IMG/VR virus record: IMGVR_UViG_3300010882_000009
DNA length: 64,000 nucleotides
Reading direction: 5' to 3' (one strand)
DNA from: a virus
Taxonomy: Duplodnaviria; Heunggongvirae; Uroviricota; Caudoviricetes
Shown here: positions 3,779-63,212 of the stretch, piece after piece
Position numbering within the stretch: position 1 is the stretch's first letter
Layout: each line of letters starts with the position of its first letter
The notes under the pieces: model-generated
The model's input: only the letters and a program-made list of their open reading frames with translations
What the model was told of the DNA's origin: nothing
The model's database searches: none
Position numbers and translations under genes: made by a program

Positions 3779-3803
3779 AATCAAATTGTTATTCTATTAA
3801 AAT
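3779..3803 (+). promoter_or_regulatory. intergenic palindrome motif copy (variant left half AATCAAA)
   Basis: AATCAAA-ttgtta-TTCTATT-AAAAT. Confidence 0.6.
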
Positions 3804-3823
3804 ATATAATAATGAGGTGCAAA

Positions 3824-4231
3824 ATGTTTGATAGGTATAAATATAAAAATGGTTGGTTAATGCAGGTAACACTTGATTGCGCTTCAGAACTAGCCGGACA
3901 CCAAGGTATTATCTCTTCACGTTTTATAGAAGAAGATAAAGAAGATATTAATGATACTGATATATTCTATATTTTACGCTTTAACGGTAATACAACAGGG
4001 CTATACTCAGAAGGCCAACTTAATCTTATACAAGAAATGGATATAACCAAATCGCAGATGTTCTATCATTCATGCCAATGCGGTGGCGGGGAACTAGAAG
4101 ATGGAGGAAATTTCTATTCTTTTTTAGATATAGGAAGGAATAATAGTATTGAATGCATACATTGTAAAGAGTATATATTTCAAAATGAAGTTGAAATTCA
4201 GGCGGCTATTGATGCATATATAAATACATAA
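3824..4231 (+). CDS. hypothetical Cys-rich protein
   Basis: track ORF trimmed to ATG with RBS atgaggtg; CQCGGG..CIHC. Confidence 0.55.
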   Translation: MFDRYKYKNGWLMQVTLDCASELAGHQGIISSRFIEEDKEDINDTDIFYILRFNGNTTGLYSEGQLNLIQEMDITKSQMFYHSCQCGGGELEDGGNFYSFLDIGRNNSIECIHCKEYIFQNEVEIQAAIDAYINT

Positions 4232-4433
4232 AAAATGCGTATTCAGGAATTAACCAAATTGCAACGCAAATAGATGTTGCATAAAATATTCTACAATGTT
4301 ATAATAAAATCATGAGGTGATTATATGAAAGAATATATTAATCATAAAATTGGCGAACCAATAACAATGCCGGAATATTGCTTTCTCCAATAGAACAGTG
4401 GGAAGAAGGTTGTTATAATTATAAAAATGACTA

Positions 4434-4688
4434 TTGATTTATAAAATACATGTTAAAAGCAAATTTGAATCAAATGATGATTCTATTAAAATATTGAGAG
4501 GGTTGTATAATATGCATATTGGTATTGAAATAGAAATTATGCACTTTAAAAATGGGCCTGTAAAATATTATAGAGCTACATATAAAGATGATTGTACATC
4601 AATAAACTTTAAATGGACTACATGTAAACAAACTGCCATTAATGATATGTTAGATATTATTAATTCTGAAGTATATGACGAAGAATGA
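4434..4688 (+). CDS. hypothetical protein, start uncertain (TTG 4434 or ATG 4512)
   Basis: track ORF; no clear RBS at 4434; RBS gagggttg before ATG 4512. Confidence 0.35.
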   Translation: MIYKIHVKSKFESNDDSIKILRGLYNMHIGIEIEIMHFKNGPVKYYRATYKDDCTSINFKWTTCKQTAINDMLDIINSEVYDEE

Positions 4689-4699
4689 AAGGAAGCATA

Positions 4700-4984
4700 A
4701 TGAATATGAATAATGAATTAATTAGTGCATACGAACTTTTATGCCCACAAAACCATTTTTGTGAAGTAGCGCATTTATCAGTAGATTTATGGATAGTGGT
4801 ATGGACAGTTTTCTATATAGCATATATATATATGTTATATAAAGCAAAATTGGAATTTAATGGCAAAGTAATTAGCAGTATATTTGGTAGGGCTTTATTA
4901 TCATTAGCTCATGCAGGTATTCATACACTTATCATTTGCTTGCCATTATTGATAATACTACATTTTGTATTTGGGATTAGCTAA
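4700..4984 (+). CDS. small membrane protein (2 predicted TM)
   Basis: RBS aaaggaagc; hydrophobic helices. Confidence 0.5.
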   Translation: MNMNNELISAYELLCPQNHFCEVAHLSVDLWIVVWTVFYIAYIYMLYKAKLEFNGKVISSIFGRALLSLAHAGIHTLIICLPLLIILHFVFGIS

Positions 4985-4998
4985 ATTTGGAGGGCAAT

Positions 4999-5223
4999 AT
5001 GAAATTATATGTAGTATATCTTATTGATTATTCTGATAATAATTTTGAAACCCCTGTTGCCGGACAAGTAATAATGAAGTTTGCTGAGAATAGTCAAGAA
5101 GCAATTAAACTTGCTAGTAAAACAATTTGTTCGCATGGGAATTATTGTAAATATATTGCACAGAAAATTGAATTAAATAATATTATTGGTAACAATACTA
5201 TTTATATGGAAATAAAGTTTTAA
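4999..5223 (+). CDS. hypothetical protein
   Basis: RBS ttggaggg before ATG 4999. Confidence 0.5.
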   Translation: MKLYVVYLIDYSDNNFETPVAGQVIMKFAENSQEAIKLASKTICSHGNYCKYIAQKIELNNIIGNNTIYMEIKF

Positions 5224-5224
5224 A

Positions 5225-5266
5225 GCAAACTACCCACTACCATTAATGGTATCGGATTTCTCGCTT
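5225..5266 (-). repeat. structured repeat element copy C (reverse orientation)
   Basis: revcomp AAGCGAGAAATCCGATACCATTAATGGTAGTGGGTAG matches copies at 13868, 16592, 52585. Confidence 0.6.
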
Positions 5267-5289
5267 AACTTTAAAAAAGGAGTGTTAAT

Positions 5290-5706
5290 ATGGATTATAA
5301 AACAATATCAGATAATTACAAAAACTCTCATCCGCGGCTATATGTATTAGCTCATTGTGATACTAACCAGCAAAATACATTTATTCAAGATGCAAGAGAC
5401 AATGGGTATTTCGCAGAGCCAATAAGGGCAAATTGTTTTGAACTTAAATTAGATAACAGGAATATGATATTTGACTGTGATGGTAGTAAGGTTGATATAA
5501 ATGAATACGCATTTGGTAAAACACAATTTACAAAAATAACGCCAAGATTATCAATAACATCAATGTCTCCAGATGATGCAGCATATTACTATAATTGGTG
5601 TCCACTTGAGTGTATGTTAGACCATTCAAAGATTCCATTAAATAACATGCATGATGCTAGGATATACAGTAATGCTTGTATATATGATGATGCTAGTGTA
5701 TTTTAA
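5290..5706 (+). CDS. hypothetical protein (138 aa)
   Basis: RBS aaaaggagtg. Confidence 0.55.
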   Translation: MDYKTISDNYKNSHPRLYVLAHCDTNQQNTFIQDARDNGYFAEPIRANCFELKLDNRNMIFDCDGSKVDINEYAFGKTQFTKITPRLSITSMSPDDAAYYYNWCPLECMLDHSKIPLNNMHDARIYSNACIYDDASVF

Positions 5707-5729
5707 TAGAAGACAAATTCTATTAAAAT
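5705..5729 (+). promoter_or_regulatory. intergenic palindrome motif copy
   Basis: AATAGAA-gacaaa-TTCTATT-AAAAT. Confidence 0.65.
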
Positions 5730-5778
5730 TTATATACATACAATAAAAACAAAAATATTATTTAAAAGGATTGATTTT

Positions 5779-6360: not shown

Positions 6361-6366
6361 TATTTA

Positions 6367-6391
6367 AATAGAATACAGATTCTATTAAAAT
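6367..6391 (+). promoter_or_regulatory. intergenic palindrome motif copy
   Basis: AATAGAA-tacaga-TTCTATT-AAAAT. Confidence 0.65.
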
Positions 6392-6420
6392 ATTAGTGGT
6401 TGATTAGCTTGCTTAATTTT

Positions 6421-6440
6421 AATAGAATACTTGTTTTGTT
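6421..6440 (+). promoter_or_regulatory. degenerate motif copy
   Basis: AATAGAA-tacttg-TTTTGTT. Confidence 0.35.
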
Positions 6441-6464
6441 GATATTAGAAATGGATGATAAAAA

Positions 6465-7306: not shown

Positions 7307-7310
7307 TTTT

Positions 7311-7335
7311 CATAGAATTTCTATTCTATTAAAAT
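7311..7335 (+). promoter_or_regulatory. intergenic palindrome motif copy
   Basis: cATAGAA-tttcta-TTCTATT-AAAAT. Confidence 0.6.
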
Positions 7336-7932: not shown

Positions 7933-7954
7933 TTTTTATAAATGAGGTGATGTT

Positions 7955-8245
7955 TTGATAAAACCGATGTTTGGTTCAAACAATCAAGGATACTTTTCAG
8001 TTGTTCAAATGAAAACATTTTTAGATGAACAACAGAAAAAAGGAATAGAAATTAAAAACATATGGTATAACTATGGGCTTCTTAGTATTTTAAGCGAATT
8101 TAAGATAACAGCAAAAGGATTATCTGGATATGATGCTCTCAGTAATTATTGCTACTTTAGCGATTCAAATAATATTAAATTTTGGAAAGCTAATATCATG
8201 CAATATTTTGCTGATGGGATTAATACAAATGCTGTGTCAGCATAA
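7955..8245 (+). CDS. hypothetical protein (TTG start)
   Basis: RBS atgaggtg 6 nt before TTG. Confidence 0.45.
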   Translation: MIKPMFGSNNQGYFSVVQMKTFLDEQQKKGIEIKNIWYNYGLLSILSEFKITAKGLSGYDALSNYCYFSDSNNIKFWKANIMQYFADGINTNAVSA

Positions 8246-8652: not shown

Positions 8653-8682
8653 ACAAAGTTACTGGTAATGTCGTTAAATTTG

Positions 8683-8707
8683 TATAGAACGATTATTTGA
8701 TTAAAAT
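8683..8707 (+). promoter_or_regulatory. motif copy (variant right half)
   Basis: tATAGAA-cgatta-TTTGATT-AAAAT. Confidence 0.55.
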
Positions 8708-10671: not shown

Positions 10672-10681
10672 CAATAATTTT

Positions 10682-10706
10682 TATAGAATGGCAGTTCTAT
10701 TAAAAT
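10682..10706 (+). promoter_or_regulatory. motif copy
   Basis: tATAGAA-tggcag-TTCTATT-AAAAT. Confidence 0.6.
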
Positions 10707-11159: not shown

Positions 11160-11522
11160 ATGTTTATACTAAATAAAAATGCAAGTTATATAAAACCCGG
11201 TGATATTGTTGCGTTTGATCCTGGTGATCACTTAGGAACCAGAAACAAAGAAAAGACACTTGTAAAAGTTACCAGAATTAAAACTGAAGATATTTACTAT
11301 AAAAATAATGCTAGTGAAAAAATACAAGAATGTATAATAGCTTATTTTAATATTATCACATCTATAAATAAAGGATGTAAGATAGATTTAAGCAAAGAAT
11401 ATTTTTGTAATGTGAATTGGCTATTTCGACTGGATGATATCAAACTTCTTATACATGAAGGAATATCAAATAGTAGAATAGCAACTATAATTAAAGATTT
11501 TAATGATGCACAATCTAAATAG
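11160..11522 (+). CDS. hypothetical protein
   Basis: RBS tggggtgg. Confidence 0.55.
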   Translation: MFILNKNASYIKPGDIVAFDPGDHLGTRNKEKTLVKVTRIKTEDIYYKNNASEKIQECIIAYFNIITSINKGCKIDLSKEYFCNVNWLFRLDDIKLLIHEGISNSRIATIIKDFNDAQSK

Positions 11523-11542
11523 AACACGTCTTCTATTAAAAT
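11518..11542 (+). promoter_or_regulatory. motif copy
   Basis: AATAGAA-cacgtc-TTCTATT-AAAAT; overlaps stop of previous gene. Confidence 0.65.
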
Positions 11543-12637: not shown

Positions 12638-12641
12638 TTTA

Positions 12642-12666
12642 AATAGAAGTTATGTTCTATGCAAAC
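12642..12666 (+). promoter_or_regulatory. motif copy
   Basis: AATAGAA-gttatg-TTCTATG-CAAAC. Confidence 0.5.
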
Positions 12667-12948: not shown

Positions 12949-12973
12949 TGTAGATAGGATGGATTAATGTTTG

Positions 12974-12998
12974 CATAGAATATTGATTCGATTAAAAT
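12974..12998 (+). promoter_or_regulatory. motif copy
   Basis: cATAGAA-tattga-TTCGATT-AAAAT. Confidence 0.55.
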
Positions 12999-15671: not shown

Positions 15672-15769
15672 CATTTGGCAGCAATACATATATCAGACAA
15701 AGAATATAGTCCGATATATATTTCAATCAAACGGATATTCTATTCAAATTTGAGTAATGGGGGTTCAGA

Positions 15770-16659: not shown

Positions 16660-16977
16660 ATGAGGAAAATAGATGCAGAATATTTTAAGAGCGACATTCT
16701 TAATTCAAATTGCTTAAATGATAACCTTGAAACTAAAGTAAAAGAATGGTTTGGGAAAGGTGCAAAGTATCATGTTTTAAAAGAATGTGATAATTATACA
16801 TATATTCAATTCATTTGTTGGCACGGTTCTGATATATCACTAGCAAGACTGCTTAAAATAGGCTATGGCATGGGTATTAGCGTTGATTATACTTTATCGC
16901 TTGATGATTGTGATGGACGAATTGACTTTGATGACATATGTTTATTTATTGGTAAAATAAGCGAGTTTTTATTTTGA
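16660..16977 (+). CDS. hypothetical protein
   Basis: RBS aggaggggtg. Confidence 0.55.
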   Translation: MRKIDAEYFKSDILNSNCLNDNLETKVKEWFGKGAKYHVLKECDNYTYIQFICWHGSDISLARLLKIGYGMGISVDYTLSLDDCDGRIDFDDICLFIGKISEFLF

Positions 16978-17000
16978 TAGAACAGTTATTCTATTAAGTT
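16976..17000 (+). promoter_or_regulatory. motif copy
   Basis: gATAGAA-cagtta-TTCTATT-AAGTT. Confidence 0.55.
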
Positions 17001-17295: not shown

Positions 17296-17508
17296 TTGCA
17301 TAAATTAAGTGTATGTCCAGATTGCGGTTCTGAACTAAATTATTCTCAATGGTTTGTAGAAGAAAAATTATACAAGTTAGATATAAATGGTATGCCATAT
17401 AAAAAGGCATACAAAAGCATAAAGCAATTCCCTTATGCTCCTGAGTGTGGTATCATATGTATCAATCCTGAGTGTAGCTATACTGAGGTTCCAAGCAGTA
17501 GAGTTTAA
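17296..17508 (+). CDS. zinc-ribbon protein (TTG start)
   Basis: CPDC..C..C; RBS ataaggagtg. Confidence 0.4.
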   Translation: MHKLSVCPDCGSELNYSQWFVEEKLYKLDINGMPYKKAYKSIKQFPYAPECGIICINPECSYTEVPSSRV

Positions 17509-17527
17509 ATAGAATATTAGTTTTATG
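17508..17527 (+). promoter_or_regulatory. degenerate motif copy
   Basis: AATAGAA-tattag-TTTTATG. Confidence 0.35.
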
Positions 17528-17551
17528 TAGAGTTAATATGAGGATGATAAA

Positions 17552-17791: not shown

Positions 17792-17875
17792 GAGCAAGTT
17801 TGAATAGAATACAACATTTACTAAACCTTTATAATAGTTATTAATTGTAATTACTGATAATAGTATGAGGCTTAA

Positions 17876-18082: not shown

Positions 18083-18236
18083 GTCAAAGTGCAGGTGTTC
18101 TTGGATTTACGGCTGGTGATTTACGTAGAATGTATAATGGAGTAGTTCAAGATTGGACAACAAGTTTAGACTTGGATACTCCATTTGAACAAATACCTGA
18201 TGACGAACATATATGGTTATAAAAATTGATAGTTTT

Positions 18237-18261
18237 AATAGAACTGTAGTTCTATTAAGAT
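18237..18261 (+). promoter_or_regulatory. motif copy
   Basis: AATAGAA-ctgtag-TTCTATT-AAGAT. Confidence 0.6.
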
Positions 18262-20768: not shown

Positions 20769-20795
20769 TATAGATTTTTAAATTAGTTATGTTTA

Positions 20796-20820
20796 CATCA
20801 AATATGTCTTCTATTAAAAC
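20796..20820 (+). promoter_or_regulatory. motif copy (variant left half)
   Basis: cATCAAA-tatgtc-TTCTATT-AAAAC. Confidence 0.5.
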
Positions 20821-21172: not shown

Positions 21173-21217
21173 GTTTGAATAAAATAAACATTCTATAGGA
21201 ATTGGGTGATGTGATAT

Positions 21218-22360: not shown

Positions 22361-22374
22361 ATAAAAAATATTTT

Positions 22375-22394
22375 AATAGAATCAACGATTGATG
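22375..22394 (+). promoter_or_regulatory. motif copy (variant right half)
   Basis: AATAGAA-tcaacg-ATTGATG. Confidence 0.4.
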
Positions 22395-22420
22395 CAAAGT
22401 AAAAAAGGAGGCGATGAAAA

Positions 22421-22774: not shown

Positions 22775-22779
22775 GTTTG

Positions 22780-22804
22780 AATCAAACCAACATTCTATTA
22801 AAAT
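22780..22804 (+). promoter_or_regulatory. motif copy (left AATCAAA)
   Basis: AATCAAA-ccaaca-TTCTATT-AAAAT. Confidence 0.6.
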
Positions 22805-24566: not shown

Positions 24567-24571
24567 CTTTG

Positions 24572-24596
24572 AATAGAAGTACGATTCTATTAAAAT
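24572..24596 (+). promoter_or_regulatory. motif copy
   Basis: AATAGAA-gtacga-TTCTATT-AAAAT. Confidence 0.65.
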
Positions 24597-25518: not shown

Positions 25519-25560
25519 TAGTTAATTCTATATATATAATTGTAAACGGAGCAGAATTTA

Positions 25561-25585
25561 AATAGAAAATACATTTTATTAAAAA
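25561..25585 (+). promoter_or_regulatory. motif copy
   Basis: AATAGAA-aataca-TTTTATT-AAAAA. Confidence 0.55.
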
Positions 25586-25604: not shown

Positions 25605-25859
25605 ATGACTGAAACAGAATATGCTAAAGAAACAAGTCGTGAAAAAATTATTGAACGCATGAAAGGTATAAATAAAGAATTGCTCGAAATTTTAGTAGAC
25701 ATTGCATTTGAAAATATTGATGGAAAACAGTTTGACTATGTAAATAGTTATCAACTAGCAGACGCTACAACAAGCATACATAATATTATATTAAATATTA
25801 ATCATATTGTATTTCAATGCGAAGATGATGACAACGAATATGATAGTAAGTTTGAATAG
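25605..25859 (+). CDS. hypothetical protein
   Basis: RBS taggaggc. Confidence 0.55.
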   Translation: MTETEYAKETSREKIIERMKGINKELLEILVDIAFENIDGKQFDYVNSYQLADATTSIHNIILNINHIVFQCEDDDNEYDSKFE

Positions 25860-25879
25860 AAAGTATATTCTATTAAAAT
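25855..25879 (+). promoter_or_regulatory. motif copy
   Basis: AATAGAA-agtata-TTCTATT-AAAAT; overlaps upstream stop. Confidence 0.65.
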
Positions 25880-26598: not shown

Positions 26599-26603
26599 GT
26601 TTG

Positions 26604-26628
26604 AATCAAAGCTGTCTTCTATTAAAAT
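26604..26628 (+). promoter_or_regulatory. motif copy (left AATCAAA)
   Basis: AATCAAA-gctgtc-TTCTATT-AAAAT. Confidence 0.6.
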
Positions 26629-28395: not shown

Positions 28396-28581
28396 ATGAT
28401 TCAAAATGGGGTGGCTGTGTCTCATATACTATCAGCTATTGAGAATTCACAAGCAGATATTTTTGCTATTGATTTAGGATGGTCGCTGAATACACCATAT
28501 CCAATAGAGTCAAAGCAAGAATTAGTTAATGCACTTGAACTTGATGAAAATGATATGGATAAAGATATAGAATTTAAATAG
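28396..28581 (+). CDS. hypothetical protein; open frame extends 45 codons upstream to about 28261 without a canonical start
   Basis: protein-like upstream frame after RBS gaggtg at 28253-28258; only ATT/ATA candidates there. Confidence 0.45.
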   Translation: MIQNGVAVSHILSAIENSQADIFAIDLGWSLNTPYPIESKQELVNALELDENDMDKDIEFK

Positions 28582-28601
28582 AAACTACGTTTTATTAAAA
28601 T
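28577..28601 (+). promoter_or_regulatory. motif copy
   Basis: AATAGAA-actacg-TTTTATT-AAAAT. Confidence 0.6.
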
Positions 28602-29005: not shown

Positions 29006-29012
29006 AAGTTTA

Positions 29013-29037
29013 AATAGAAACTCTGTTCTATTAAAAT
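29013..29037 (+). promoter_or_regulatory. motif copy
   Basis: AATAGAA-actctg-TTCTATT-AAAAT. Confidence 0.65.
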
Positions 29038-29700: not shown

Positions 29701-29704
29701 TTTA

Positions 29705-29729
29705 AATAGAAACACTCTTTTATTAAAAT
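29705..29729 (+). promoter_or_regulatory. motif copy
   Basis: AATAGAA-acactc-TTTTATT-AAAAT. Confidence 0.6.
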
Positions 29730-30240: not shown

Positions 30241-30561
30241 ATGACTAAGGTTATATTTAGAAAGCACAAGGACTATAAAAAATTAGCAGGCGATGGAATT
30301 GTAGCTTTCTTTCCTGGAGAGGAAGTTGCCTATGATAGAATATTATGTTATGAACATTGCGGTCAGCATAATGAAGCAAGTTATTCGTATTATCTAGAAA
30401 ATACAGTTAAGGCTAAGCCAGAAGAATATGCGAGCCTACTAAACGAACTGATAAATATTGTTGGATATGACGACCTAAAAATTATGCAGAAAGTCATGCA
30501 TAGCACAATATCTGATAGCTGGCGCAGATGTTATAAGCATAGTAATGAGATTAATATTTAA
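30241..30561 (+). CDS. hypothetical protein
   Basis: RBS atgaggtgttgg. Confidence 0.5.
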   Translation: MTKVIFRKHKDYKKLAGDGIVAFFPGEEVAYDRILCYEHCGQHNEASYSYYLENTVKAKPEEYASLLNELINIVGYDDLKIMQKVMHSTISDSWRRCYKHSNEINI

Positions 30562-30585
30562 ATAGAAATCATCTTCTATTGAAAT
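30561..30585 (+). promoter_or_regulatory. motif copy
   Basis: AATAGAA-atcatc-TTCTATT-GAAAT. Confidence 0.6.
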
Positions 30586-34114: not shown

Positions 34115-34129
34115 ACAAGCATACAATTA

Positions 34130-34465: not shown

Positions 34466-34470
34466 ATTTC

Positions 34471-34495
34471 AATAGAATAATACTTCTATTAAAAC
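34471..34495 (+). promoter_or_regulatory. motif copy
   Basis: AATAGAA-taatac-TTCTATT-AAAAC. Confidence 0.6.
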
Positions 34496-36255: not shown

Positions 36256-36273
36256 TTTTTAATAAAATATTTT

Positions 36274-36293
36274 AATAGAAATTCCATTTGATG
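36274..36293 (+). promoter_or_regulatory. motif copy (variant right half)
   Basis: AATAGAA-attcca-TTTGATG. Confidence 0.4.
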
Positions 36294-36311
36294 AAGATTG
36301 GAGGGACTTAT

Positions 36312-36617: not shown

Positions 36618-36684
36618 TGATTATGAATATAAAAATAAAAGACAATAGGTGTTGGCATTATGAAGTAATCGAGTAATTAATTTT

Positions 36685-36709
36685 AATAGAACTCTCATTC
36701 TATCAAAAT
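36685..36709 (+). promoter_or_regulatory. motif copy
   Basis: AATAGAA-ctctca-TTCTATC-AAAAT. Confidence 0.6.
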
Positions 36710-39014: not shown

Positions 39015-39042
39015 TATCTGCGCGAAAATAAGTAATATAGTG

Positions 39043-39067
39043 AATAGAACCGTTATTCTATTCAAAT
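39043..39067 (+). promoter_or_regulatory. motif copy
   Basis: AATAGAA-ccgtta-TTCTATT-CAAAT. Confidence 0.6.
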
Positions 39068-40218: not shown

Positions 40219-40224
40219 TATTTA

Positions 40225-40249
40225 AATAGAATTGAATTTCTATTCAAAT
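40225..40249 (+). promoter_or_regulatory. motif copy
   Basis: AATAGAA-ttgaat-TTCTATT-CAAAT. Confidence 0.6.
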
Positions 40250-42717: not shown

Positions 42718-42721
42718 TCTA

Positions 42722-42746
42722 AATAGAACTGCTATTTGATTAAAAT
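42722..42746 (+). promoter_or_regulatory. motif copy (variant right half)
   Basis: AATAGAA-ctgcta-TTTGATT-AAAAT. Confidence 0.55.
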
Positions 42747-43103: not shown

Positions 43104-43343
43104 ATGGAAAATAAATTATATAATATTGCAATATCAAAATTTACAGATGAAATATTTGAGAAAAATAAAGCATATGATATAGATAATATTATTGATAATT
43201 GTATATATATTACATCACGTAGGAATAAAAATATTATTTTAGGAATTGATGATACTGATTTTATATTTATTTTGAATGCTACAAAAGAATTTCTGATTCA
43301 GATATTTAATATATATGGTATTACCAACTATAAATTTGAATAG
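43104..43343 (+). CDS. hypothetical protein, paralogue of C-terminal half of 29759-30220
   Basis: RBS aaaaggaga. Confidence 0.5.
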   Translation: MENKLYNIAISKFTDEIFEKNKAYDIDNIIDNCIYITSRRNKNIILGIDDTDFIFILNATKEFLIQIFNIYGITNYKFE

Positions 43344-43363
43344 AACTAAGTTTCTATTAAAAT
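43339..43363 (+). promoter_or_regulatory. motif copy
   Basis: AATAGAA-ctaagt-TTCTATT-AAAAT. Confidence 0.65.
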
Positions 43364-43507: not shown

Positions 43508-43978
43508 ATGCAAGAATATTATATGTCAGATTATACCAGAGCATTATGTAGAGCTATAATTGCACATGATAAACAATATGATGAATCAGGATTGCCATAT
43601 GTGATTCATTTAATAGCAGCATCTGAACTTCTTGATACTAATGAAGGAAAAATAGCAGCTATATTACATGACATCATTAACATGAATCATGATAACGATT
43701 TATTAAATATAAATTTAATAGAAAAAGACTTTGATGAAAATATTGCAAGTATTGTTGATTGTCTTACAAAACAAGAAAGAGAAACATATGAACAATATAT
43801 GCATCGTGTTTGCAAAAATGAAATTGCAATTAAAATAATAATTGCTAAATTAAAAATTAAAATAAATAAAACACTATATGATGAAGATATTATTGTTAAA
43901 TTAGAAGATAAATTTAATGAATGGAATAAATGGATTAATATTTTAGAAAAATGTTTAGAAAAATATAATAAAAAATGA
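43508..43978 (+). CDS. HD-domain protein with RelA/SpoT (Mesh1-like small alarmone hydrolase) fold; ED diad not conserved
   Basis: AHDKQYDESGLPYVIHLIAASELL..KIAAILHDIINM matches SpoT HD region; RBS ataggagc; track start 43385 would add a TM segment. Confidence 0.55.
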   Translation: MQEYYMSDYTRALCRAIIAHDKQYDESGLPYVIHLIAASELLDTNEGKIAAILHDIINMNHDNDLLNINLIEKDFDENIASIVDCLTKQERETYEQYMHRVCKNEIAIKIIIAKLKIKINKTLYDEDIIVKLEDKFNEWNKWINILEKCLEKYNKK

Positions 43979-44675: not shown

Positions 44676-44701
44676 ATTAAGATTATGTTGTATTATATTT
44701 A

Positions 44702-44726
44702 AATAGAATCATTATTCTATGAAAAC
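44702..44726 (+). promoter_or_regulatory. motif copy
   Basis: AATAGAA-tcatta-TTCTATG-AAAAC. Confidence 0.55.
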
Positions 44727-46565: not shown

Positions 46566-46616
46566 TATTAACATAAAATAATAGATTGTGTATGAATATG
46601 CGCTATGAAGTATCTT

Positions 46617-46641
46617 AATAGAAGTATGCTTCTATTAAAAA
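46617..46641 (+). promoter_or_regulatory. motif copy
   Basis: AATAGAA-gtatgc-TTCTATT-AAAAA. Confidence 0.65.
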
Positions 46642-47091: not shown

Positions 47092-47117
47092 TATTTATTA
47101 TATCAATTTATAGTTTT

Positions 47118-47142
47118 AATAGAAGATCATTTCTATTTAAAT
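47118..47142 (+). promoter_or_regulatory. motif copy
   Basis: AATAGAA-gatcat-TTCTATT-TAAAT. Confidence 0.65.
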
Positions 47143-47479: not shown

Positions 47480-47589
47480 AATTAATTATAATTTGAAATA
47501 AAAGCTGCGTATGGTAGTTCACTAGAATATTATTTCTATTCATATATTTTTAGTGATAAAATATAATCAAATTTGCGAAAATATATTCT

Positions 47590-47970: not shown

Positions 47971-47978
47971 AAAATTTG

Positions 47979-48003
47979 AATAGAAGACGCATTCTATTCA
48001 AAT
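47979..48003 (+). promoter_or_regulatory. motif copy
   Basis: AATAGAA-gacgca-TTCTATT-CAAAT. Confidence 0.6.
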
Positions 48004-50457: not shown

Positions 50458-50465
50458 AATATTTT

Positions 50466-50490
50466 AATAGAATATTTCTTCTATTAAAAT
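50466..50490 (+). promoter_or_regulatory. motif copy
   Basis: AATAGAA-tatttc-TTCTATT-AAAAT. Confidence 0.65.
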
Positions 50491-53753: not shown

Positions 53754-54077
53754 ATGAATTATTTATATTCTGTTATTGCAAGTTGTAATAACGATGTTTA
53801 TATTAAAAAATATGAAATTATTAAAGAAACTGAAAAGCAATTTAAAATTAAAGATAATGGCTCATATTGTGAACGAACAATTAATAAGAGTTCACTTATG
53901 AATATAGATAGAGACTTTTTACTAGGTGTATTTTGCTATGAAGAACAGATTAATGATGCGATAAACTTATTAATTCTACACTATGATTCAAATATTGAAG
54001 CTTTACAGAAGCGTATTGACGGAGCTAATTTAATAATTGGTAAATTACATGCTTATGCTAAACTAAAATCTAAATAG
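53754..54077 (+). CDS. hypothetical protein
   Basis: RBS ttggagac. Confidence 0.5.
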   Translation: MNYLYSVIASCNNDVYIKKYEIIKETEKQFKIKDNGSYCERTINKSSLMNIDRDFLLGVFCYEEQINDAINLLILHYDSNIEALQKRIDGANLIIGKLHAYAKLKSK

Positions 54078-54097
54078 AACGTCCATTTGATTAAAAG
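54073..54097 (+). promoter_or_regulatory. motif copy (variant right half)
   Basis: AATAGAA-cgtcca-TTTGATT-AAAAG. Confidence 0.5.
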
Positions 54098-55054: not shown

Positions 55055-55411
55055 ATGGATTTTGAAAAATTTATTGATGAAATAGTATTAGATAATCTGT
55101 ATAAAGAAGCAATTAATAATAGAATAGTATCATGTATTAGACGTATTGAATTACAATTTGCTAAACATACAGTATCAGTTCTTGTTCCATATGATTTTAT
55201 AGCGTATATTATTGGTGAGTTGAATGGAATGTTTAATGCTTGGAGTATGTTAAAAATTGTTAGAAATATGAATATTAAATTGGATTATAATAATAAGTTG
55301 ATTATCTTTAATAATTTAGAAGACAATTCGCAAATTAAGCCATATAATATTTCAATAAAAATACCATATGATACATTTATCCAAGATAAAATAAACGAAC
55401 AATTTAAATAG
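55055..55411 (+). CDS. hypothetical protein
   Basis: RBS ataggagatg. Confidence 0.55.
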   Translation: MDFEKFIDEIVLDNLYKEAINNRIVSCIRRIELQFAKHTVSVLVPYDFIAYIIGELNGMFNAWSMLKIVRNMNIKLDYNNKLIIFNNLEDNSQIKPYNISIKIPYDTFIQDKINEQFK

Positions 55412-55502
55412 AACAATACATTTATGAAAATTGAGGAGTAGATTATATGGGATTTGGAACCTCAGCGTCAGGGAAAGCATGTAATACAGGGGGTAATCAA
55501 TT

Positions 55503-55820: not shown

Positions 55821-55960
55821 AGTAATATTACAGCTAACGAATTTTATATAGAAGTGTAATTTGATTCAAATTTTTGGATGATAGATAGGAGAATAAAATT
55901 GACAGTTAAAGAATGGAATAATTATAATGAACACAAAAATATGTGTATATTAAGGATAAA

Positions 55961-56256: not shown

Positions 56257-56508
56257 ATGTTTGCTCAAATTTGTAAATTAAACGAAAAATATCCTATATA
56301 TAATAATGAAGATGAAATAATTGGCTATACTGATGAAAATGATACGATAATAATTACTGATGTAAAATCTGAATGGATATATGATATTTGCAAAGCAAAA
56401 TATGAATATTATACAATTATTATAAGTGGAGAGTATATAGGATATAATTCTTTAGTTCTTGATGAGTCTGATGTTGACAAATTAATAGATGTAGAAAGCA
56501 AGTTTTAA
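56257..56508 (+). CDS. hypothetical protein
   Basis: RBS agagggttg. Confidence 0.5.
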   Translation: MFAQICKLNEKYPIYNNEDEIIGYTDENDTIIITDVKSEWIYDICKAKYEYYTIIISGEYIGYNSLVLDESDVDKLIDVESKF

Positions 56509-56531
56509 TAGAAGAACTCTTCTATTAAAAT
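56507..56531 (+). promoter_or_regulatory. motif copy
   Basis: AATAGAA-gaactc-TTCTATT-AAAAT. Confidence 0.65.
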
Positions 56532-58968: not shown

Positions 58969-58997
58969 TTGACAATTACCCACGGCTAATATATATT
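58969..58997 (+). promoter_or_regulatory. sigma70-like promoter TTGACA-17-TATATT
   Basis: upstream of recombinase-like ORF; about 50-nt leader. Confidence 0.35.
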
Positions 58998-59053: not shown

Positions 59054-60109
59054 GTGGGTAAACAAGTTAGGACATTAATGTTTAACAGGAATTTGAAAGA
59101 AGAGTACATTGATTTTGAAAAAAAGGAAAGCAATAAAATTGCATTGGAAAACTATTTTAAACGACTATACGATGCAGAGGTTTCAACTGGCGATAATGGT
59201 ACAGATATAATATTTATGACTTACGATGAATTAAAAATAGCATTTTTATCACTAGGGATAAGACGAGATTTATCAATATCTCATTTTTTAGCATCAATGA
59301 GAGGATATGCATCGTGGGCTTTGTTAGTAAAGGGGATTACAAAAGACAAAAAGGCTTTTGACATAATGACTGTAGATGCATTAAAAGAAAAAAGCACAAT
59401 CACTAGTAAGATGCTAGGGGATTATGAACAGCTTAAAACTATTATTTTTAATGGACTTGATACAGTTAATTATCCTAATGCATCTATGCGAAATAGTTTA
59501 GTATTACATTTGGTTTTTGACGGGTTAACATTCAATGATATTGTAGATTTAAAAAAATCCGATCTTGATTTAAATACAAATTCAATAACGCTGGGGGGTG
59601 GATATATTGTAAAGTTATCTGACGAGACAGTTGATTTGTGGCTTAGATTTCAAGATGTTGATGGAATAGAAAAGAAAAATGCACAGGCGGAAAGATCAAC
59701 AAAATCAACAACAGAAGAATATATAATGATTCCTCTAATAGATAACGACTACTTAATACGACCACAATTAAGGCAAAATGCAAGAACACAGCAAACACAG
59801 ATTCCGTTATCTTCATTAAATCGTATTATACGTGTTATATATAAGACTTCAAAATCAAGCGAACAGCTATCTCCTTCTACTGTTCGCATATCAGGTGTAT
59901 TTCATAGATTATATCAGTGTGAGCTAAAAGGAGAAATAAATGGTGTAAAAATTACATCTGATATTGATAATTATGAATATGAAATTGCAAAATATCTTGC
60001 ATATCATCTTCGTGTTGAGTATAATGACAAAGGAGAGTTGATGTTAAAATTATTGAGATGGAGGAAAGATTATAGCGATTGGAAGTATGCATTTGGTTAC
60101 ACATCTTAA
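59054..60109 (+). CDS. divergent tyrosine-recombinase-like protein (GTG start), call tentative
   Basis: candidate box I R in SMRNSLVLHLVFDGLTFNDIVDLKKSDLDL, K in GYIVKLSDE, box II-like STVRISGVFHRLY, C-terminal Tyr candidates; RBS aaaggatggtg. Confidence 0.4.
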   Translation: MGKQVRTLMFNRNLKEEYIDFEKKESNKIALENYFKRLYDAEVSTGDNGTDIIFMTYDELKIAFLSLGIRRDLSISHFLASMRGYASWALLVKGITKDKKAFDIMTVDALKEKSTITSKMLGDYEQLKTIIFNGLDTVNYPNASMRNSLVLHLVFDGLTFNDIVDLKKSDLDLNTNSITLGGGYIVKLSDETVDLWLRFQDVDGIEKKNAQAERSTKSTTEEYIMIPLIDNDYLIRPQLRQNARTQQTQIPLSSLNRIIRVIYKTSKSSEQLSPSTVRISGVFHRLYQCELKGEINGVKITSDIDNYEYEIAKYLAYHLRVEYNDKGELMLKLLRWRKDYSDWKYAFGYTS

Positions 60110-60143: not shown

Positions 60144-61244
60144 ATGCCAGCAGCAAGAACAAAAGCAAAAGCAAAAGAAAAATCAAATATGATAGTGCCC
60201 GAGCATGTTGTAAAGCCAGTATATGTAGTAATAGAACCTGAGTCAAGCAAGGTTGATATGAGTGTATCAAGTGTTGCAAACAAATTTAAAAACAGAACTA
60301 TTATTACAGATATTTTAGAACAACGTGGTGATGTTTGGCATCCTATTGTTAAAGGAATGTTTATTCGCGCCTTAATAAGAGGTGTCCAAATACCACCATT
60401 GTACTTCAACAAAGCTGAAAAGACTAGCGAAGCGTTAGACGGACAGCAGAGGATTAGAACAATCTCAGGATTTATTCATGGAGAATTTTCTATCCATAAA
60501 GATGTTCCACCTATACGTGTAGAAAAAGATGGAGTTGCTGAAGATTTTGTAATAGCACGACTATATTTTAAAGACTTACCTACTGATATACAGGATAAGT
60601 TAAAATCAACTGTATTATTATCTTTTACATTTTTTAATATGACACATGAAGAGAAGGTTAATTTTTTCATTGAAATAAATAGCAACAAACCTATATCCCC
60701 TGCTGACTTTTCCCGTATAAGAATATGCAGTAGACATATATTCATTAAACTTGCAAAACTTCCGGGGATAGCCAGTGTATTAAAGGATAGTAAGAAAAAG
60801 AAGTTGGAAGACGAAGATATTCCGGCAGATGCAGCAATAATGGCATACGCTAGTAACCATTCATTGATGAACGATAAAAACGGAAGACATATTCTTTGGA
60901 CGCAAGAAATAACTCCTGAGCAGGAAGAAGAAATGACAAAAGCACTTGACTATATGAAGACATTCTTTGTTATTATGGCAGACATGAAAAAAATGTCTAA
61001 TAAAATAAAGAATAGAAAAACGCACATGGTTTCATTAATGTACATGGCTATAATTGCTATTCAGAGATGTATAAGCGCAGAAGACTTCGCAGAGAGGGTT
61101 AAAGGATTTTTTAATACAAATGATGACCGGGCAAGTCACGATGAAGGATACAACAATGCATGTTCAGCGGCAAGCGCAAAATTATTAAGCGTATCTATAC
61201 GCAGAGATATATTGCGAAATGTAATTTATAGAGATATTGGATAA
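60144..61244 (+). CDS. DUF262 (ParB/Srx-fold) protein with DGQQR motif
   Basis: EQRGDVWHP...LDGQQRIRTISGF; RBS gaagggagatg. Confidence 0.6.
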   Translation: MPAARTKAKAKEKSNMIVPEHVVKPVYVVIEPESSKVDMSVSSVANKFKNRTIITDILEQRGDVWHPIVKGMFIRALIRGVQIPPLYFNKAEKTSEALDGQQRIRTISGFIHGEFSIHKDVPPIRVEKDGVAEDFVIARLYFKDLPTDIQDKLKSTVLLSFTFFNMTHEEKVNFFIEINSNKPISPADFSRIRICSRHIFIKLAKLPGIASVLKDSKKKKLEDEDIPADAAIMAYASNHSLMNDKNGRHILWTQEITPEQEEEMTKALDYMKTFFVIMADMKKMSNKIKNRKTHMVSLMYMAIIAIQRCISAEDFAERVKGFFNTNDDRASHDEGYNNACSAASAKLLSVSIRRDILRNVIYRDIG

Positions 61245-61739: not shown

Positions 61740-61771
61740 ATACAAATGATATATAGAAAGGATTATAATTA

Positions 61772-61987
61772 ATGCATCCATACCTAAAAGAACATGGATT
61801 TCCTCAGATTCCAAAAGGGGTTGTTATATGGGTAGGCTATTGGAAAGATGGAAAGATTACACATGTATGTATTGGGAAGCCAACAGAGCGTAATGTGTAT
61901 CATTTATGTGAGGTTGTAGACGGGAAGCTAGTTAAAATAACAAAAGATTCTGATTCTAGGAAGTTCGATGATATAGTGTTCTCTTAA
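61772..61987 (+). CDS. hypothetical protein
   Basis: RBS gaaaggatt. Confidence 0.55.
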   Translation: MHPYLKEHGFPQIPKGVVIWVGYWKDGKITHVCIGKPTERNVYHLCEVVDGKLVKITKDSDSRKFDDIVFS

Positions 61988-62019
61988 GAATAAAAAATAT
62001 ATTTAATAAAAAAATAGGT

Positions 62020-62268
62020 GGATTTTATAAGTTAGAAATTAATGCTAATAATTCAGAAATATATAATGCTAAGATATTAAATGTAATTTATAAGCTTAAA
62101 TCTTTTTCATTAAAGCAGTTGTATGACAATCTTGATAAAAGTATTCCAATAGAGATTATTAATTCTAAAGTTAAATCATGGCTAGACGATGGATATATAT
62201 ATGAATATCCAACTGGAATATATACATTATGTAATAACGATAAATATTTAGCAGAAATGTTGCATTGA
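62020..62268 (+). pseudogene. start-less gene fragment homologous to 52601-52771
   Basis: ..SFSLKQLYDNLDKSIPIEIINSKVKSWLDDGYIYEYPTGIYTL..*; open frame from 61972 with no ATG/GTG; core 62202-62218 identical to 52735-52751. Confidence 0.35.
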
Positions 62269-62364
62269 TATGGCGGCGAATAGATATACTATAATTATGC
62301 TTTATAGGCATAAATAATTCATATAGATAGTATGATATCATACCGCAAAGGCATAAAATATTTT

Positions 62365-62389
62365 AATAGAAGTGCAGTTCTATTAAAAT
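62365..62389 (+). promoter_or_regulatory. motif copy
   Basis: AATAGAA-gtgcag-TTCTATT-AAAAT. Confidence 0.65.
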
Positions 62390-62448
62390 ATATGTATACG
62401 GAAGATGAGAATGTTTGTATGTAAATAAATTCTAGGAGAGAACATATC

Positions 62449-62610
62449 ATGAAAAGGTTTTTTCAGACAATAGCAATCTTGCTAGTAATGCTACTGTTAA
62501 TTTTGGGATCTACATATCTTCTGAATATTTTTAATTTTGAAAGATCAATGGCATTACTTGCATTATTGCTATGTATTGTCGGTATTTCTATATATAAGAA
62601 TTTGCCTTAG
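62449..62610 (+). CDS. 53-aa two-TM membrane peptide
   Basis: RBS taggagaga. Confidence 0.4.
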   Translation: MKRFFQTIAILLVMLLLILGSTYLLNIFNFERSMALLALLLCIVGISIYKNLP

Positions 62611-62628
62611 TATGTTAATGAATATTTT

Positions 62629-62653
62629 AATAGAAGAATTATTTGATTAAAAT
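62629..62653 (+). promoter_or_regulatory. motif copy (variant right half)
   Basis: AATAGAA-gaatta-TTTGATT-AAAAT. Confidence 0.55.
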
Positions 62654-62668
62654 ACTAGGAGCAAACTA

Positions 62669-62956
62669 ATGGTAATTATTGATAAAATAGATTCATTTTT
62701 CAAAAAACCAAAGGAAATCACAGATAAATGTTGTGCATTCTGTAACAGTTCAAATGTCACTGTTACAAATAATATAGAGGAAGACAAACATATTTCAGAC
62801 TGTTTTAGAATTGTAAAGTATACTGCTGATTATGACTGCCAGAACTGTGGCTGCTCATGTAAAGCAGAGCAAGTATGGAATGCTTCAAAGTGTTGGAATA
62901 TTCATGAATGGGTTAGGCCGTTTAAATATAATAAATATAAATATAAATATAAGTAG
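62669..62956 (+). CDS. zinc-ribbon protein, paralogue of 12060-12317
   Basis: RBS taggagca. Confidence 0.55.
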   Translation: MVIIDKIDSFFKKPKEITDKCCAFCNSSNVTVTNNIEEDKHISDCFRIVKYTADYDCQNCGCSCKAEQVWNASKCWNIHEWVRPFKYNKYKYKYK

Positions 62957-62973
62957 TGAATTGAGGGGTATTA

Positions 62974-63192
62974 ATGAGAAAAAATGAAGAAGTTAAGTTG
63001 CCTAAAGAGTTAACTAGGATTCCTGAACCTATAACTGTAAAAGAGGATTTTGATTTAGGATTTCCAGGGCCACCTGATCCAGAGGTAGTCGAAGACAAAC
63101 GACATAAATTTGATTATGCTTGTTTGATTTTGATTTCAATATTTATAATTGCAATATTTTTCATAGGTATGATTTTGCCAATGTTTCAATAG
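62974..63192 (+). CDS. hypothetical protein with C-terminal TM helix
   Basis: RBS tgaggggta. Confidence 0.5.
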   Translation: MRKNEEVKLPKELTRIPEPITVKEDFDLGFPGPPDPEVVEDKRHKFDYACLILISIFIIAIFFIGMILPMFQ

Positions 63193-63212
63193 AAGGCTTA
63201 TTTTATTAAAAT
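63188..63212 (+). promoter_or_regulatory. motif copy
   Basis: AATAGAA-ggctta-TTTTATT-AAAAT. Confidence 0.6.

Follow-up and report, generated by a model that had tools for sequence, protein, structure and literature searches.

A 29-bp intergenic palindrome repeated across a phage array of small genes, with an MrpR/SroF-family protein as candidate binder

The DNA analysed here is a stretch of 64,000 nucleotides (the window) from a virus of the Caudoviricetes (IMG/VR record IMGVR_UViG_3300010882_000009), in which a 29-bp palindromic element with a free 6-nt centre is repeated in the gaps between small genes. The repeats are tentatively interpreted as dispersed operator or roadblock sites for a repressor of the MrpR/SroF family encoded at 59054-60109, which is the candidate binder.

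Closest described systems

Lysogeny is maintained by the repressor MrpR, which occupies the repeated element of SPbeta at 10 positions, intergenic or in promoters (PMC10516654). SroF is a monomer that clamps a 24-26-bp AT-rich box at multiple sites across the genome, contacting 24 of 26 bp and reading the central 6 bp with its CB domain (bioRxiv 10.1101/2025.11.27.690993). The SPbeta element, re-derived here from AF020713, is aCAAATACAAAwAATATGTATAta, an imperfect AT-rich palindrome. At yonP and yorE it is found within the promoter, at aimR it precedes the −35, and at yopM and yopV it separates the promoter from the ribosome-binding site.

Core sites of the dif type have an architecture of 11-12 + 6 + 11-12 bp. 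Stoperators are reportedly scattered in short intergenic spaces, where they silence the prophage. Those of cluster A mycobacteriophages are many intergenic repressor sites that stop elongation (PMC9283540). In the PeSL cassettes of T4-like phages, a stop codon is followed by an inverted repeat within a promoter and then by a Shine-Dalgarno sequence (PMC2839356, PMC4122927).

Repetition, placement and reading of the palindrome

When up to two mismatches were allowed, AATAGAA-N6-TTCTATT had 45 matches in the window compared with 2.5 ± 1.5 expected, and none of 100 shuffles reached 45. An iterated weight matrix converged on 52 sites, from 3491-3519 through 63184-63212, and at least two further degenerate copies are present at 26139 and 32943. 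The repeated intergenic palindrome reported in an initial annotation of this DNA is therefore real, and it is larger than first claimed. The extent given then, 3779-63212, holds for the last copy, which ends at 63212, but the first copy is at 3491. The array also continues past the window on both sides, with eight more sites in the upstream flank (contig L025, 9.7 kb), where CATAGAA left arms are common, and two more, at lower density, in the downstream flank (contig L014). Altogether there are more than 60 copies (52 in the window and 10 in the flanks) over at least 80 kb, standing before roughly every third gene.

The consensus is AAA(A/G)TTTnAATAGAA-N6-TTCTATT(A/c)AAAT(A/T)T, with an inner core of TAGAA-N6-TTCTA, and no conservation beyond it was found out to −70 or +90 in the 52-site alignment. 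As had been described initially, the half-sites are conserved and the spacer is 6 nt in every site, with no sequence or pairing preference. Single half-sites are nearly absent, TTTnAATAGAA occurring only twice outside full sites.

By our own plus-strand gene calls, 49 of the 52 site centres are intergenic, compared with 16% expected (binomial p = 2e-35), and an earlier gene-call set gave 51 of 52, rather than a motif equally frequent inside coding sequence. The left half often lies on the upstream stop codon, as first noted: the stop overlaps the left arm or is at most 5 nt away in 26 of 52 sites, the commonest overlapping stop being TAG at positions 3-5 of AATAGAA. In 28 of 52 sites the distance from the last T to the next start codon is 13-25 nt, most often 19-20 nt. 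The start codon is only 13 nt downstream of the sites at 25851..25879 (TTTGAATAGAA-agtata-TTCTATTAAAAT, 33 bits) and 29009..29037 (TTTAAATAGAA-actctg-TTCTATTAAAAT, 36 bits); here and below, sites are given as arms and spacer with the weight-matrix score in bits, and no strand is assigned.

In the first 13 kb, palindromic sites were found at 3491..3519 (TTTGAATAGAA-ctgatg-TTTGATTCAAAT, 31 bits), 3775..3803 (TTTTAATCAAA-ttgtta-TTCTATTAAAAT, 31 bits), 4464..4492 (TTTGAATCAAA-tgatga-TTCTATTAAAAT, 29 bits), 5701..5729 (TTTTAATAGAA-gacaaa-TTCTATTAAAAT, 33 bits), 6363..6391 (TTTAAATAGAA-tacaga-TTCTATTAAAAT, 35 bits), 7307..7335 (TTTTCATAGAA-tttcta-TTCTATTAAAAT, 31 bits), 8679..8707 (TTTGTATAGAA-cgatta-TTTGATTAAAAT, 30 bits), 10678..10706 (TTTTTATAGAA-tggcag-TTCTATTAAAAT, 29 bits), 11514..11542 (TCTAAATAGAA-cacgtc-TTCTATTAAAAT, 34 bits), 12638..12666 (TTTAAATAGAA-gttatg-TTCTATGCAAAC, 32 bits) and 12970..12998 (TTTGCATAGAA-tattga-TTCGATTAAAAT, 32 bits). 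They are followed by those at 15721..15749 (TTTCAATCAAA-cggata-TTCTATTCAAAT, 32 bits), 16972..17000 (TTTTGATAGAA-cagtta-TTCTATTAAGTT, 25 bits), 17504..17532 (TTTAAATAGAA-tattag-TTTTATGTAGAG, 22 bits), 18233..18261 (TTTTAATAGAA-ctgtag-TTCTATTAAGAT, 32 bits), 20792..20820 (TTTACATCAAA-tatgtc-TTCTATTAAAAC, 28 bits), 22776..22804 (TTTGAATCAAA-ccaaca-TTCTATTAAAAT, 28 bits), 24568..24596 (TTTGAATAGAA-gtacga-TTCTATTAAAAT, 34 bits), 25557..25585 (TTTAAATAGAA-aataca-TTTTATTAAAAA, 26 bits), 26600..26628 (TTTGAATCAAA-gctgtc-TTCTATTAAAAT, 33 bits), 28573..28601 (TTTAAATAGAA-actacg-TTTTATTAAAAT, 30 bits) and 29701..29729 (TTTAAATAGAA-acactc-TTTTATTAAAAT, 33 bits).

The series continues at 34126..34154 (ATTAAATAGAA-ttgtaa-TTCTATATAAAT, 22 bits), 34467..34495 (TTTCAATAGAA-taatac-TTCTATTAAAAC, 31 bits), 36270..36298 (TTTTAATAGAA-attcca-TTTGATGAAGAT, 26 bits), 36681..36709 (TTTTAATAGAA-ctctca-TTCTATCAAAAT, 33 bits), 39039..39067 (AGTGAATAGAA-ccgtta-TTCTATTCAAAT, 25 bits), 40221..40249 (TTTAAATAGAA-ttgaat-TTCTATTCAAAT, 33 bits), 42718..42746 (TCTAAATAGAA-ctgcta-TTTGATTAAAAT, 27 bits), 43335..43363 (TTTGAATAGAA-ctaagt-TTCTATTAAAAT, 33 bits), 44698..44726 (TTTAAATAGAA-tcatta-TTCTATGAAAAC, 34 bits), 46613..46641 (TCTTAATAGAA-gtatgc-TTCTATTAAAAA, 28 bits), 47114..47142 (TTTTAATAGAA-gatcat-TTCTATTTAAAT, 30 bits), 47975..48003 (TTTGAATAGAA-gacgca-TTCTATTCAAAT, 35 bits) and 50462..50490 (TTTTAATAGAA-tatttc-TTCTATTAAAAT, 36 bits), and closes with 62361..62389 (TTTTAATAGAA-gtgcag-TTCTATTAAAAT, 36 bits), 62625..62653 (TTTTAATAGAA-gaatta-TTTGATTAAAAT, 30 bits) and 63184..63212 (TTTCAATAGAA-ggctta-TTTTATTAAAAT, 32 bits).

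The module at 52.5-62.3 kb, where the motif had been called scarce, still has four sites, at 54069..54097 (TCTAAATAGAA-cgtcca-TTTGATTAAAAG, 28 bits), 55403..55431 (TTTAAATAGAA-caatac-ATTTATGAAAAT, 25 bits), 55843..55871 (TTTATATAGAA-gtgtaa-TTTGATTCAAAT, 24 bits) and 56503..56531 (TTTTAATAGAA-gaactc-TTCTATTAAAAT, 36 bits), the last of which heads an operon with an FtsK-like gene. Degenerate sites were found at 17799..17827 (TTTGAATAGAA-tacaac-ATTTACTAAACC, 21 bits), 21174..21202 (TTTGAATAAAA-taaaca-TTCTATAGGAAT, 19 bits), 22371..22399 (TTTTAATAGAA-tcaacg-ATTGATGCAAAG, 22 bits) and 47517..47545 (GTTCACTAGAA-tattat-TTCTATTCATAT, 18 bits); a further one at 7953..7981 (TTTTGATAAAA-ccgatg-TTTGGTTCAAAC, 20 bits) overlaps a called start codon, and that at 43713..43741 (ATTTAATAGAA-aaagac-TTTGATGAAAAT, 22 bits) is the single clearly intragenic match. 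The palindromic site at 6417..6445 (TTTTAATAGAA-tacttg-TTTTGTTGATAT, 22 bits) is degenerate in its right arm.

The initial annotation preferred sequence-specific protein recognition to an RNA hairpin on the ground that the half-site variants co-vary as complements. The recurrent variant arms are AATCAAA on the left (6 sites), which faces TTCTATT every time, and TTTGATT/G on the right (11 sites), which faces AATAGAA-type arms every time, so that AATCAAA and TTTGATT never pair. Among the 52 sites, the pair (4,17) is A-T in 35, A-G in 11, C-T in 6 and C-G in none (6 C and 11 G), and the pair (5,16) is G-C in 27, G-T in 17, A-C in 7 and A-T in 1. Paired cells amount to 80.2% of the 52-row alignment compared with 79.8% in shuffles, and the covariation score is 0.136 compared with 0.132 shuffled, 177 of 500 shuffles being as high or higher. 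Since covariation is at the shuffled level, the two arms vary independently; the argument from covariation was wrong, although the conclusion drawn from it, recognition by a sequence-specific protein, suits the data better than an RNA hairpin does.

That the element is a hairpin in RNA (or single-stranded DNA), serving as an intercistronic stabiliser, a ribonuclease processing site, an attenuator or a terminator, is improbable. Eighteen copies do form a perfect 12-bp inverted repeat with a 6-nt loop and fold at a mean of −8.1 kcal/mol, but the 16 hybrid copies fold at −3.5 kcal/mol and the 18 remaining copies at −4.2 kcal/mol, compared with −2.45 ± 2.2 kcal/mol for random 36-mers of the window, so the hairpins barely exceed random sequence in stability at about two thirds of sites (34 of 52). 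A location right after the stop codon and between cistrons is typical of such elements, no credible, canonical intrinsic terminator was found in 20-40 kb, and a host RNase target would explain the same element across unrelated phages; RNase III sites in SP82 early mRNA, for which phage SP82 is cited in PMC4838370, offer a comparison. Against a hairpin stand the complete lack of compensatory change, the two mid-stem mismatches of the recurrent AATCAAA/TTCTATT form, the absence of an Rfam match for the element, and a free loop on a conserved stem, which is the reverse of what hairpin-binding proteins usually read. The arms contain one G-C pair and are followed by AAAAT, with no T-run that would give a U-tract after the element, and no closing pairs within the spacer were shown among the 52 sites. 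The excess of G-T (28) over A-C (10) combinations on the sense strand could be taken as a sign of RNA pairing, but it was rejected as such because it is confounded by the G > C skew of the strand, which largely predicts it.

Selection acts on the DNA sequence, and base pairing is not selected. Conserved arms, a free centre of fixed length, obligate pairs of half-sites and a second allowed half-site together argue for a protein that reads double-stranded DNA.

Promoter-like features, the candidate binder and relatives

The initial annotation also saw a candidate promoter in the element, with a tail resembling an extended −10. Read as a sigma-70-type promoter, the element is TTnAAT-16-TAAAAT, which scores 9 of 12 when n = G, and position 21 (the would-be −11A) is A in 36 of 52 sites, compared with T in 18 of 52 at its mirror position 0 (Fisher p = 0.0008). 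A phage-specific promoter is nevertheless distinctly unlikely. Under that explanation the palindrome would serve an activator, a sigma-like factor or a phage RNA polymerase, TAAAAT would be the −10 or initiation region, and each marked gene would head its own middle or late transcription unit; the 28 of 52 sites directly 5′ of a ribosome-binding site and start codon agree with it, as do the SPbeta elements within promoters at yonP and yorE. However, conservation is two-fold symmetric, the TATTAAAAT tail mostly mirroring the left flank, and conservation is lowest at the base where the −35 G would be expected (T 34%, A 32%, G 25%). C is present at the would-be −11 position in 19% of sites. In the 34 sites with a nearby start, the median distance from TAAAAT to the beginning of the Shine-Dalgarno sequence is 7.5 nt, and it is at most 7 nt in 14 of 28 scorable sites, so near that a start 6-8 nt downstream would truncate or pass the ribosome-binding site at about half of sites. 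The right arm runs directly into the Shine-Dalgarno sequence in the phage L035 (TTCTATTGAAAGGAG) and in the relative L017 (TTCTATTAAAATGGAG, 12 nt from the start codon). The case for a promoter with an extended −10-like tail is weak for these reasons.

Consensus promoters of the form TTGACA-17-TATAAT, often with TG, are present at about 0.70, 10.17, 13.9, 18.7, 52.54, 55.90, 58.97 and 61.71 kb, nearly every one of them in a gap free of the motif, which also counts against the element being the promoter itself. They had been placed in the 52.5-62.3 kb module but are found within the motif-rich part as well (about 10.17, 13.9 and 18.7 kb). The two transcription regimes proposed at first therefore survive as two classes of signal, which are interleaved and not spatially separate. 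A few copies of the element overlap or abut a good promoter, and these favour the promoter explanation: the right arm of the site at 30557..30585 (TTTAAATAGAA-atcatc-TTCTATTGAAAT, 33 bits) overlaps the −35 of TTGAAA-17-TATTAT, the site at 55843 lies 28 nt upstream of TTGACA-18-TATAAT, and the others are at 54069 and at L021:453 in a second relative. Most copies have just the weak TTnAAT-16-TAAAAT, and no separate conserved promoter was found 5′ of the motif out to −70. The TTTGATT right arm was considered as the −35 of a downstream promoter, which on manual inspection was true of just 1-2 of 11 sites. In line with a promoter, a small sigma-70 region-4 protein is encoded close to the MrpR module of the relative L017; a sigma-like factor downstream, as in L017, was not found here, and neither the window nor the 20 kb of its flanks yielded a sigma factor or RNA polymerase gene.

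PeSL cassettes, whose stem-loop often lies between −35 and −10 (PMC2839356), have been weighed as precedent for a promoter too, and they are the closest in layout, since repeated composite elements fill the stop-to-Shine-Dalgarno gaps between small ORFans in hyperplastic regions. They differ in having near-consensus sigma-70 boxes 17 bp apart, in contrast to TTnAAT-16-TAAAAT with n unconstrained, and stable G/C-rich terminating stems of variable sequence, in contrast to the conserved, weak A/T-rich arms found here.

The initial account of regulators missed the gene at 59054..60109 (plus strand), which encodes an MrpR/SroF-family protein of tyrosine-recombinase fold, as indicated by Pfam, BLASTP and AF2/Foldseek. 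The protein matches Pfam MrpR_N_CB with 33.3 bits (cut-off 27), has MrpR_C_cat among the precomputed matches, and aligns end-to-end with SPbeta YopR/MrpR at 25% identity over 337 aa (BLASTP, E = 2e-9). Word-indexed homologue search returned only the protein itself or Bacillus YopR types, and the family, with 87 representatives of about 320 aa, emerged by exhaustive search. The AlphaFold (AF2) model, built from a 45-sequence alignment, has a pLDDT of 94.6 and a pTM of 0.90, and its top Foldseek matches in PDB are MrpR/YopR (8A0A, 8BJ6, 8BPZ) and the phi3T SroF-DNA complex 9RD5 (TM 0.56-0.60), ahead of Tn1549 Int, XerA and Cre. Catalytic Arg-I, His and His/Trp are missing, the columns of MrpR V137/S138, N254 and V291 holding gap/D, S and Y, respectively. 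Arg-II and the Tyr are kept, the former as an Arg in the V257 column, next to that of MrpR R258, the latter in a column that holds Y in 27 of 29 members. The reference catalytic-site residues are those of Table 3 in PMC10516654, and the family is documented as inactive as a recombinase.

The gene is preceded by a promoter, TTGACA-17-TATATT, at 58969..58997 (plus strand), in a gap without a palindromic site, and the homologues in L016, L017, L021 and L022 likewise stand behind TTGACA promoters. Downstream, at 60144..61244 (plus strand), is a gene for a GmrSD_N/DUF262 protein, the conserved downstream partner of MrpR-like genes. The module MrpR-like, GmrSD_N/DUF262 and PemK-type toxin is conserved in the window (59054-61244), L016, L017/L018, L021 and L022, and in two loci it is followed by a large serine recombinase at an apparent prophage end beside a host SASP gene. 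The neighbour of YopR in SPbeta is the DndB-like YopQ, of the same ParB-like clan as GmrSD_N, which suggests that the repressor is functionally paired with a DUF262/DndB-type protein. YopQ had been considered as an FtsK homologue in the synteny comparison and was rejected, YopQ being DndB-like.

Pfam and PHROG scans of the 131 window proteins, from which the MerR-type helix-turn-helix recombinase of the IS607-like element was scanned apart, recognised no other transcription regulator save a sub-threshold PapB-like match (56768-57316), and neither a helix-turn-helix regulator nor an L5 gp71-type repressor was found in them, most small proteins being unannotatable. No LexA box was found near the repressor gene, the sole GAAC-N4-GTTC of the window lying within the site at 18233 by chance.

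The protein at 59054-60109 is the binder that the likeness to the SPbeta and phi3T systems (SPBRE/Phi3TRE) points to. In both cases a large temperate phage of Firmicutes repeats a long AT-rich intergenic box among early genes on one strand, often directly before the ribosome-binding site or, here at a few copies, in or beside a promoter; a full-length MrpR/SroF member is encoded, whose fold here is nearest to 8A0A and 9RD5; and next to the repressor gene lies a gene of the ParB clan, DndB-like YopQ in SPbeta and GmrSD_N in the window. We infer that this protein binds the palindromes and represses transcription, and that two copies of it, or one in either orientation, would occupy the dyad. Differences are that most copies here have no adjacent consensus promoter and that neither arbitrium genes nor a LexA box was seen.

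The distribution among relatives was then considered. A megablast of 12 kb against 50,697 phage records and a tblastn of the MrpR-like protein against phages gave no match; exact-motif scans of viral, genome and metagenome collections gave isolated matches, the metagenome scan having missed the window's own contig too, and these searches brought up no close relative. The relative L017 (QMCD01000014.1) shares with the window a CCA-adding enzyme (65% identity) and several small proteins, and has one perfect motif copy and at least two degenerate ones, and L021 has two copies. In L021, a strong TTGACA-17-TAATAT just 5′ of the MrpR-like gene is followed directly by AATAGAA-caagtg-TTCGAAA, and this palindrome after the promoter is in a classical operator position, which counts for the repressor interpretation. 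In L035 and L048, five or six related palindromes stand at successive stop-to-Shine-Dalgarno junctions, and no protein similarity to the window was found in 10.9 kb. Relatives reached through the DUF7666 protein were L023, an ordinary small prophage, and L024, with a similar small-gene array and no motif.

Some other features of these contigs were observed. The palindromes of L035 (6300-8400; IMG/VR UViG_3300042923_000524) and L048 (100-670; 3300042922_000329) are about 270 bp apart, one per small gene, in an AT-rich phage that encodes a RecD-like helicase and a metallophosphoesterase, and also, at L035 4104-4496, a 130-aa protein with an RNA polymerase alpha C-terminal domain, which is unusual in phage. 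L017 18092-19732 is a gene-free stretch of about 1.6 kb behind a consensus promoter, adjoined by CCA-adding enzyme and RtcB genes, and it apparently contains an array of tRNAs among which a CAGCAATC-type repeat is scattered. Strong promoters at L017 9322-10001, L022 9322-9426 and L016 9916-10001 have a common upstream box, AAAATAG(T/C)(G/A)CTTGACA, which suggests a phage-specific promoter subclass or an UP-like element.

Several of these observations weigh against the MrpR/SroF-type protein as binder, and the evidence across genomes is mixed. The motif is kept in L017 and L021, whose MrpR-like proteins are 26-27% identical to that of the window, but the closer homologues L016 (33%) and L022 (30%) are without it in the 10-15 kb fetched; the apparently unrelated 138-kb phage L035 has a palindrome cluster and no MrpR-like gene in the 10.9 kb available. 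The motif shares no alignable core with the SPbeta element or the phi3T box CAGTAATTTTATTTTTATTCTTAATG, and the sites outnumber those of SPbeta about fivefold (more than 60 compared with about 10). SroF and MrpR bind as monomers to boxes that are asymmetric or at most loosely symmetric. A near-perfect 12 + 6 + 12 dyad whose centre is free, as found here, would require a binding mode other than that of a monomer reading the central 6 bp. In addition, A21 is more strongly conserved than its mirror position, as if a directional requirement, for instance that of a −10 element, were superimposed.

The pattern among L017, L021, L016, L022 and L035 makes another dimeric regulator of phage or host a serious rival, which we still consider unlikely: the same function at the DNA level, performed by another protein of two-fold symmetry, which could be a small regulator of the phage that escaped recognition or a factor common to the hosts of several AT-rich Firmicute phages. 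Helix-turn-helix dimers typically have 5-N6-5 sites, the geometry of the core TAGAA-N6-TTCTA, whose half-site centres are separated by about 11 bp, and a dyad with a free centre suits a dimer better than the monomeric clamp of SroF. L019, which like L016 and L022 carries an MrpR-like gene, is also motif-free in the fetched stretch. On the other side, the scans described above gave no helix-turn-helix candidate among the annotatable proteins, and the motif is absent from 185,579 species-representative genomes save four single chance matches, which makes a host regulon on exactly this full 29-mer unlikely. To our knowledge, the motif matches no known host regulator consensus.

In their distribution the sites also resemble stoperators, being dozens of putative repressor sites in short intergenic spaces, many of which touch stop or start codons; stoperators silence the prophage by halting elongation as well as initiation (PMC9283540). 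They are, however, 13-bp, asymmetric and orientation-dependent in contrast to the 29-bp palindrome, their binder is a monomeric protein with helix-turn-helix and stoperator domains, of which none was found in the Pfam/PHROG scans here, and their hosts (Actinobacteria) are unrelated.

With dif, loxP and FRT sites the element shares two inverted arms of 11-13 bp, an unrecognised centre of 6-8 bp and a recombinase-fold protein encoded nearby, and its geometry equals that of a dif-type core. The copies might thus be primarily recombination linkers or a selfish dispersed repeat (PeSL-like junctions, dif/lox-like sites or REP/MITE-like), promoting the shuffling of small ORFan genes with regulation secondary, but this is highly doubtful. 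Small ORFans, one to three per copy, are flanked by the sites; L035, in whose fetched parts no common genes were found, carries a related motif, as though cassettes or junctions were mobile; and PeSLs provide a precedent (PMC2839356, PMC4122927). However, the sole recombinase-fold protein nearby is the one without Arg-I and His, and dif-like sites number one or two rather than tens of copies. Because the spacers all differ, strand exchange would lack overlap homology; recent spread by copy-and-paste is disfavoured, since spacers and flanks have not been copied together; and self-comparison found no duplicated cassettes bounded by sites.

Since each known system has at least one defining feature lacking in the element, the latter is not filed as a member of any and is treated as a previously undescribed form of the dispersed-operator kind. 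By analogy, its closest functional counterparts would be SPBRE/Phi3TRE with MrpR/SroF and the stoperators. The explanations considered, five in all, are not mutually exclusive.

Under the operator or roadblock interpretation, a single sequence-specific regulator would govern the whole array, at least 80 kb long, whose small genes share one strand and are of accessory or early type. The repressor, made from its own strong sigma-A-type promoter, would bind at stop-to-Shine-Dalgarno junctions before roughly every third gene and block elongating RNA polymerase, and this roadblock would silence read-through and spurious initiation in 29%-GC DNA. Bound repressor would in addition cover abutting promoters or the weak TAAAAT of the right arm, which resembles a promoter, and once the repressor is released, the entire array would open together. 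A further idea is a long shot, namely that a recombinase-derived repressor keeps the ancestral two-protomer binding on a dif-like 12 + 6 + 12 dyad, that more than 60 sites at about every third gene junction form a silencing lattice over the 80-kb ORFan array, and that the same sites may double as cassette exchange points between unrelated AT-rich phages; exchange points at junctions would explain the related palindromes in L035, L017 and L021.

Gene content of the window and meaning of the array

The window has a G+C content of 29%, a strong and uniform G > C skew, and about 136 genes, nearly all on the plus strand and mainly small ORFans, with a coding fraction of 0.84 by plus-strand gene calls. 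The few recognisable genes encode an IS607-like element, an FtsK/SpoIIIE-type ATPase (57337-58533, from domain scans), the MrpR_N_CB protein and two GmrSD_N/DUF262 proteins, with one macro, one GNAT, one HD and one SPFH domain among the remaining proteins. The sequence derives from metagenomes (JGI 3300010167, whose source sample is listed under SRR10512950/51, two Logan runs and one ENA assembly); the longest source contig of the MrpR-like protein is 225 kb, and the recovered contigs L007, L008, L014 and L025 are each 100% identical to the window. It appears to be part of a large SPbeta-like temperate phage of a low-GC Firmicute.

The IS607-like element (749-2849) consists of a MerR-type helix-turn-helix serine recombinase (749-1414) and a 488-aa partner ending at 2849 with a weak SSO2105_N match. 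It is inserted mid-array, with motif copies on both sides and its own consensus promoter at 703-731, and contains no motif copy, as the initial annotation had stated.

Two gaps, at 5224-5289 and 52575-52640, have a common element of about 45 nt, in which CCCAC is followed by a short hairpin and then CGGnTTTCTCGCTT. The hairpins show compensatory differences (ACCATTAATGGT compared with CCCCTAAAGGG), and the second copy lies just 3′ of the best promoter of the window, TTGACA-17-TGGTATAAT at 52542; the element may be a small structured RNA or leader, and an Rfam search with it gave no match. Segments 52630-52763 and 62097-62229, both within long 'intergenic' gaps, are 74% identical and are probably paralogous small ORFs missed by gene calls. 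In-frame tandem repeats were observed at 23237-23735, 48423-48848 and 5951-6107, in the DUF7666/beta-solenoid gene (23.2-23.7 kb, 18-nt period) and two others, and the gene at 48.0-49.0 kb has a paralogue upstream of the window (L025 4340-4964, 85% identity). The 224-nt gap at 8245-8470 contains G+C-rich inverted repeats such as GCCGGGGCTGACTGATCCAGTCCCGGC, atypical in a 29%-GC genome, and could represent either a terminator that lacks a T-run or a non-coding RNA. tRNA and Rfam scans of the window were empty.

The motif is a clean marker of transcription-unit or cassette boundaries in an otherwise unannotatable ORFan region, and if it should be a promoter or processing site instead, it would still define a regulon of about 50 genes in an uncultivated phage. 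If the MrpR/SroF-type protein does bind it, this recombinase-fold repressor family would act at far larger scale and in a different mode than known, on symmetric sites in more than 60 copies at gene junctions rather than at a handful of promoters. This would link the SPbeta-type switch with stoperator-style genome-wide silencing, known just from mycobacteriophages, and one 29-mer with one protein would provide a testable handle on the silencing of potentially toxic small genes in very large temperate phages.

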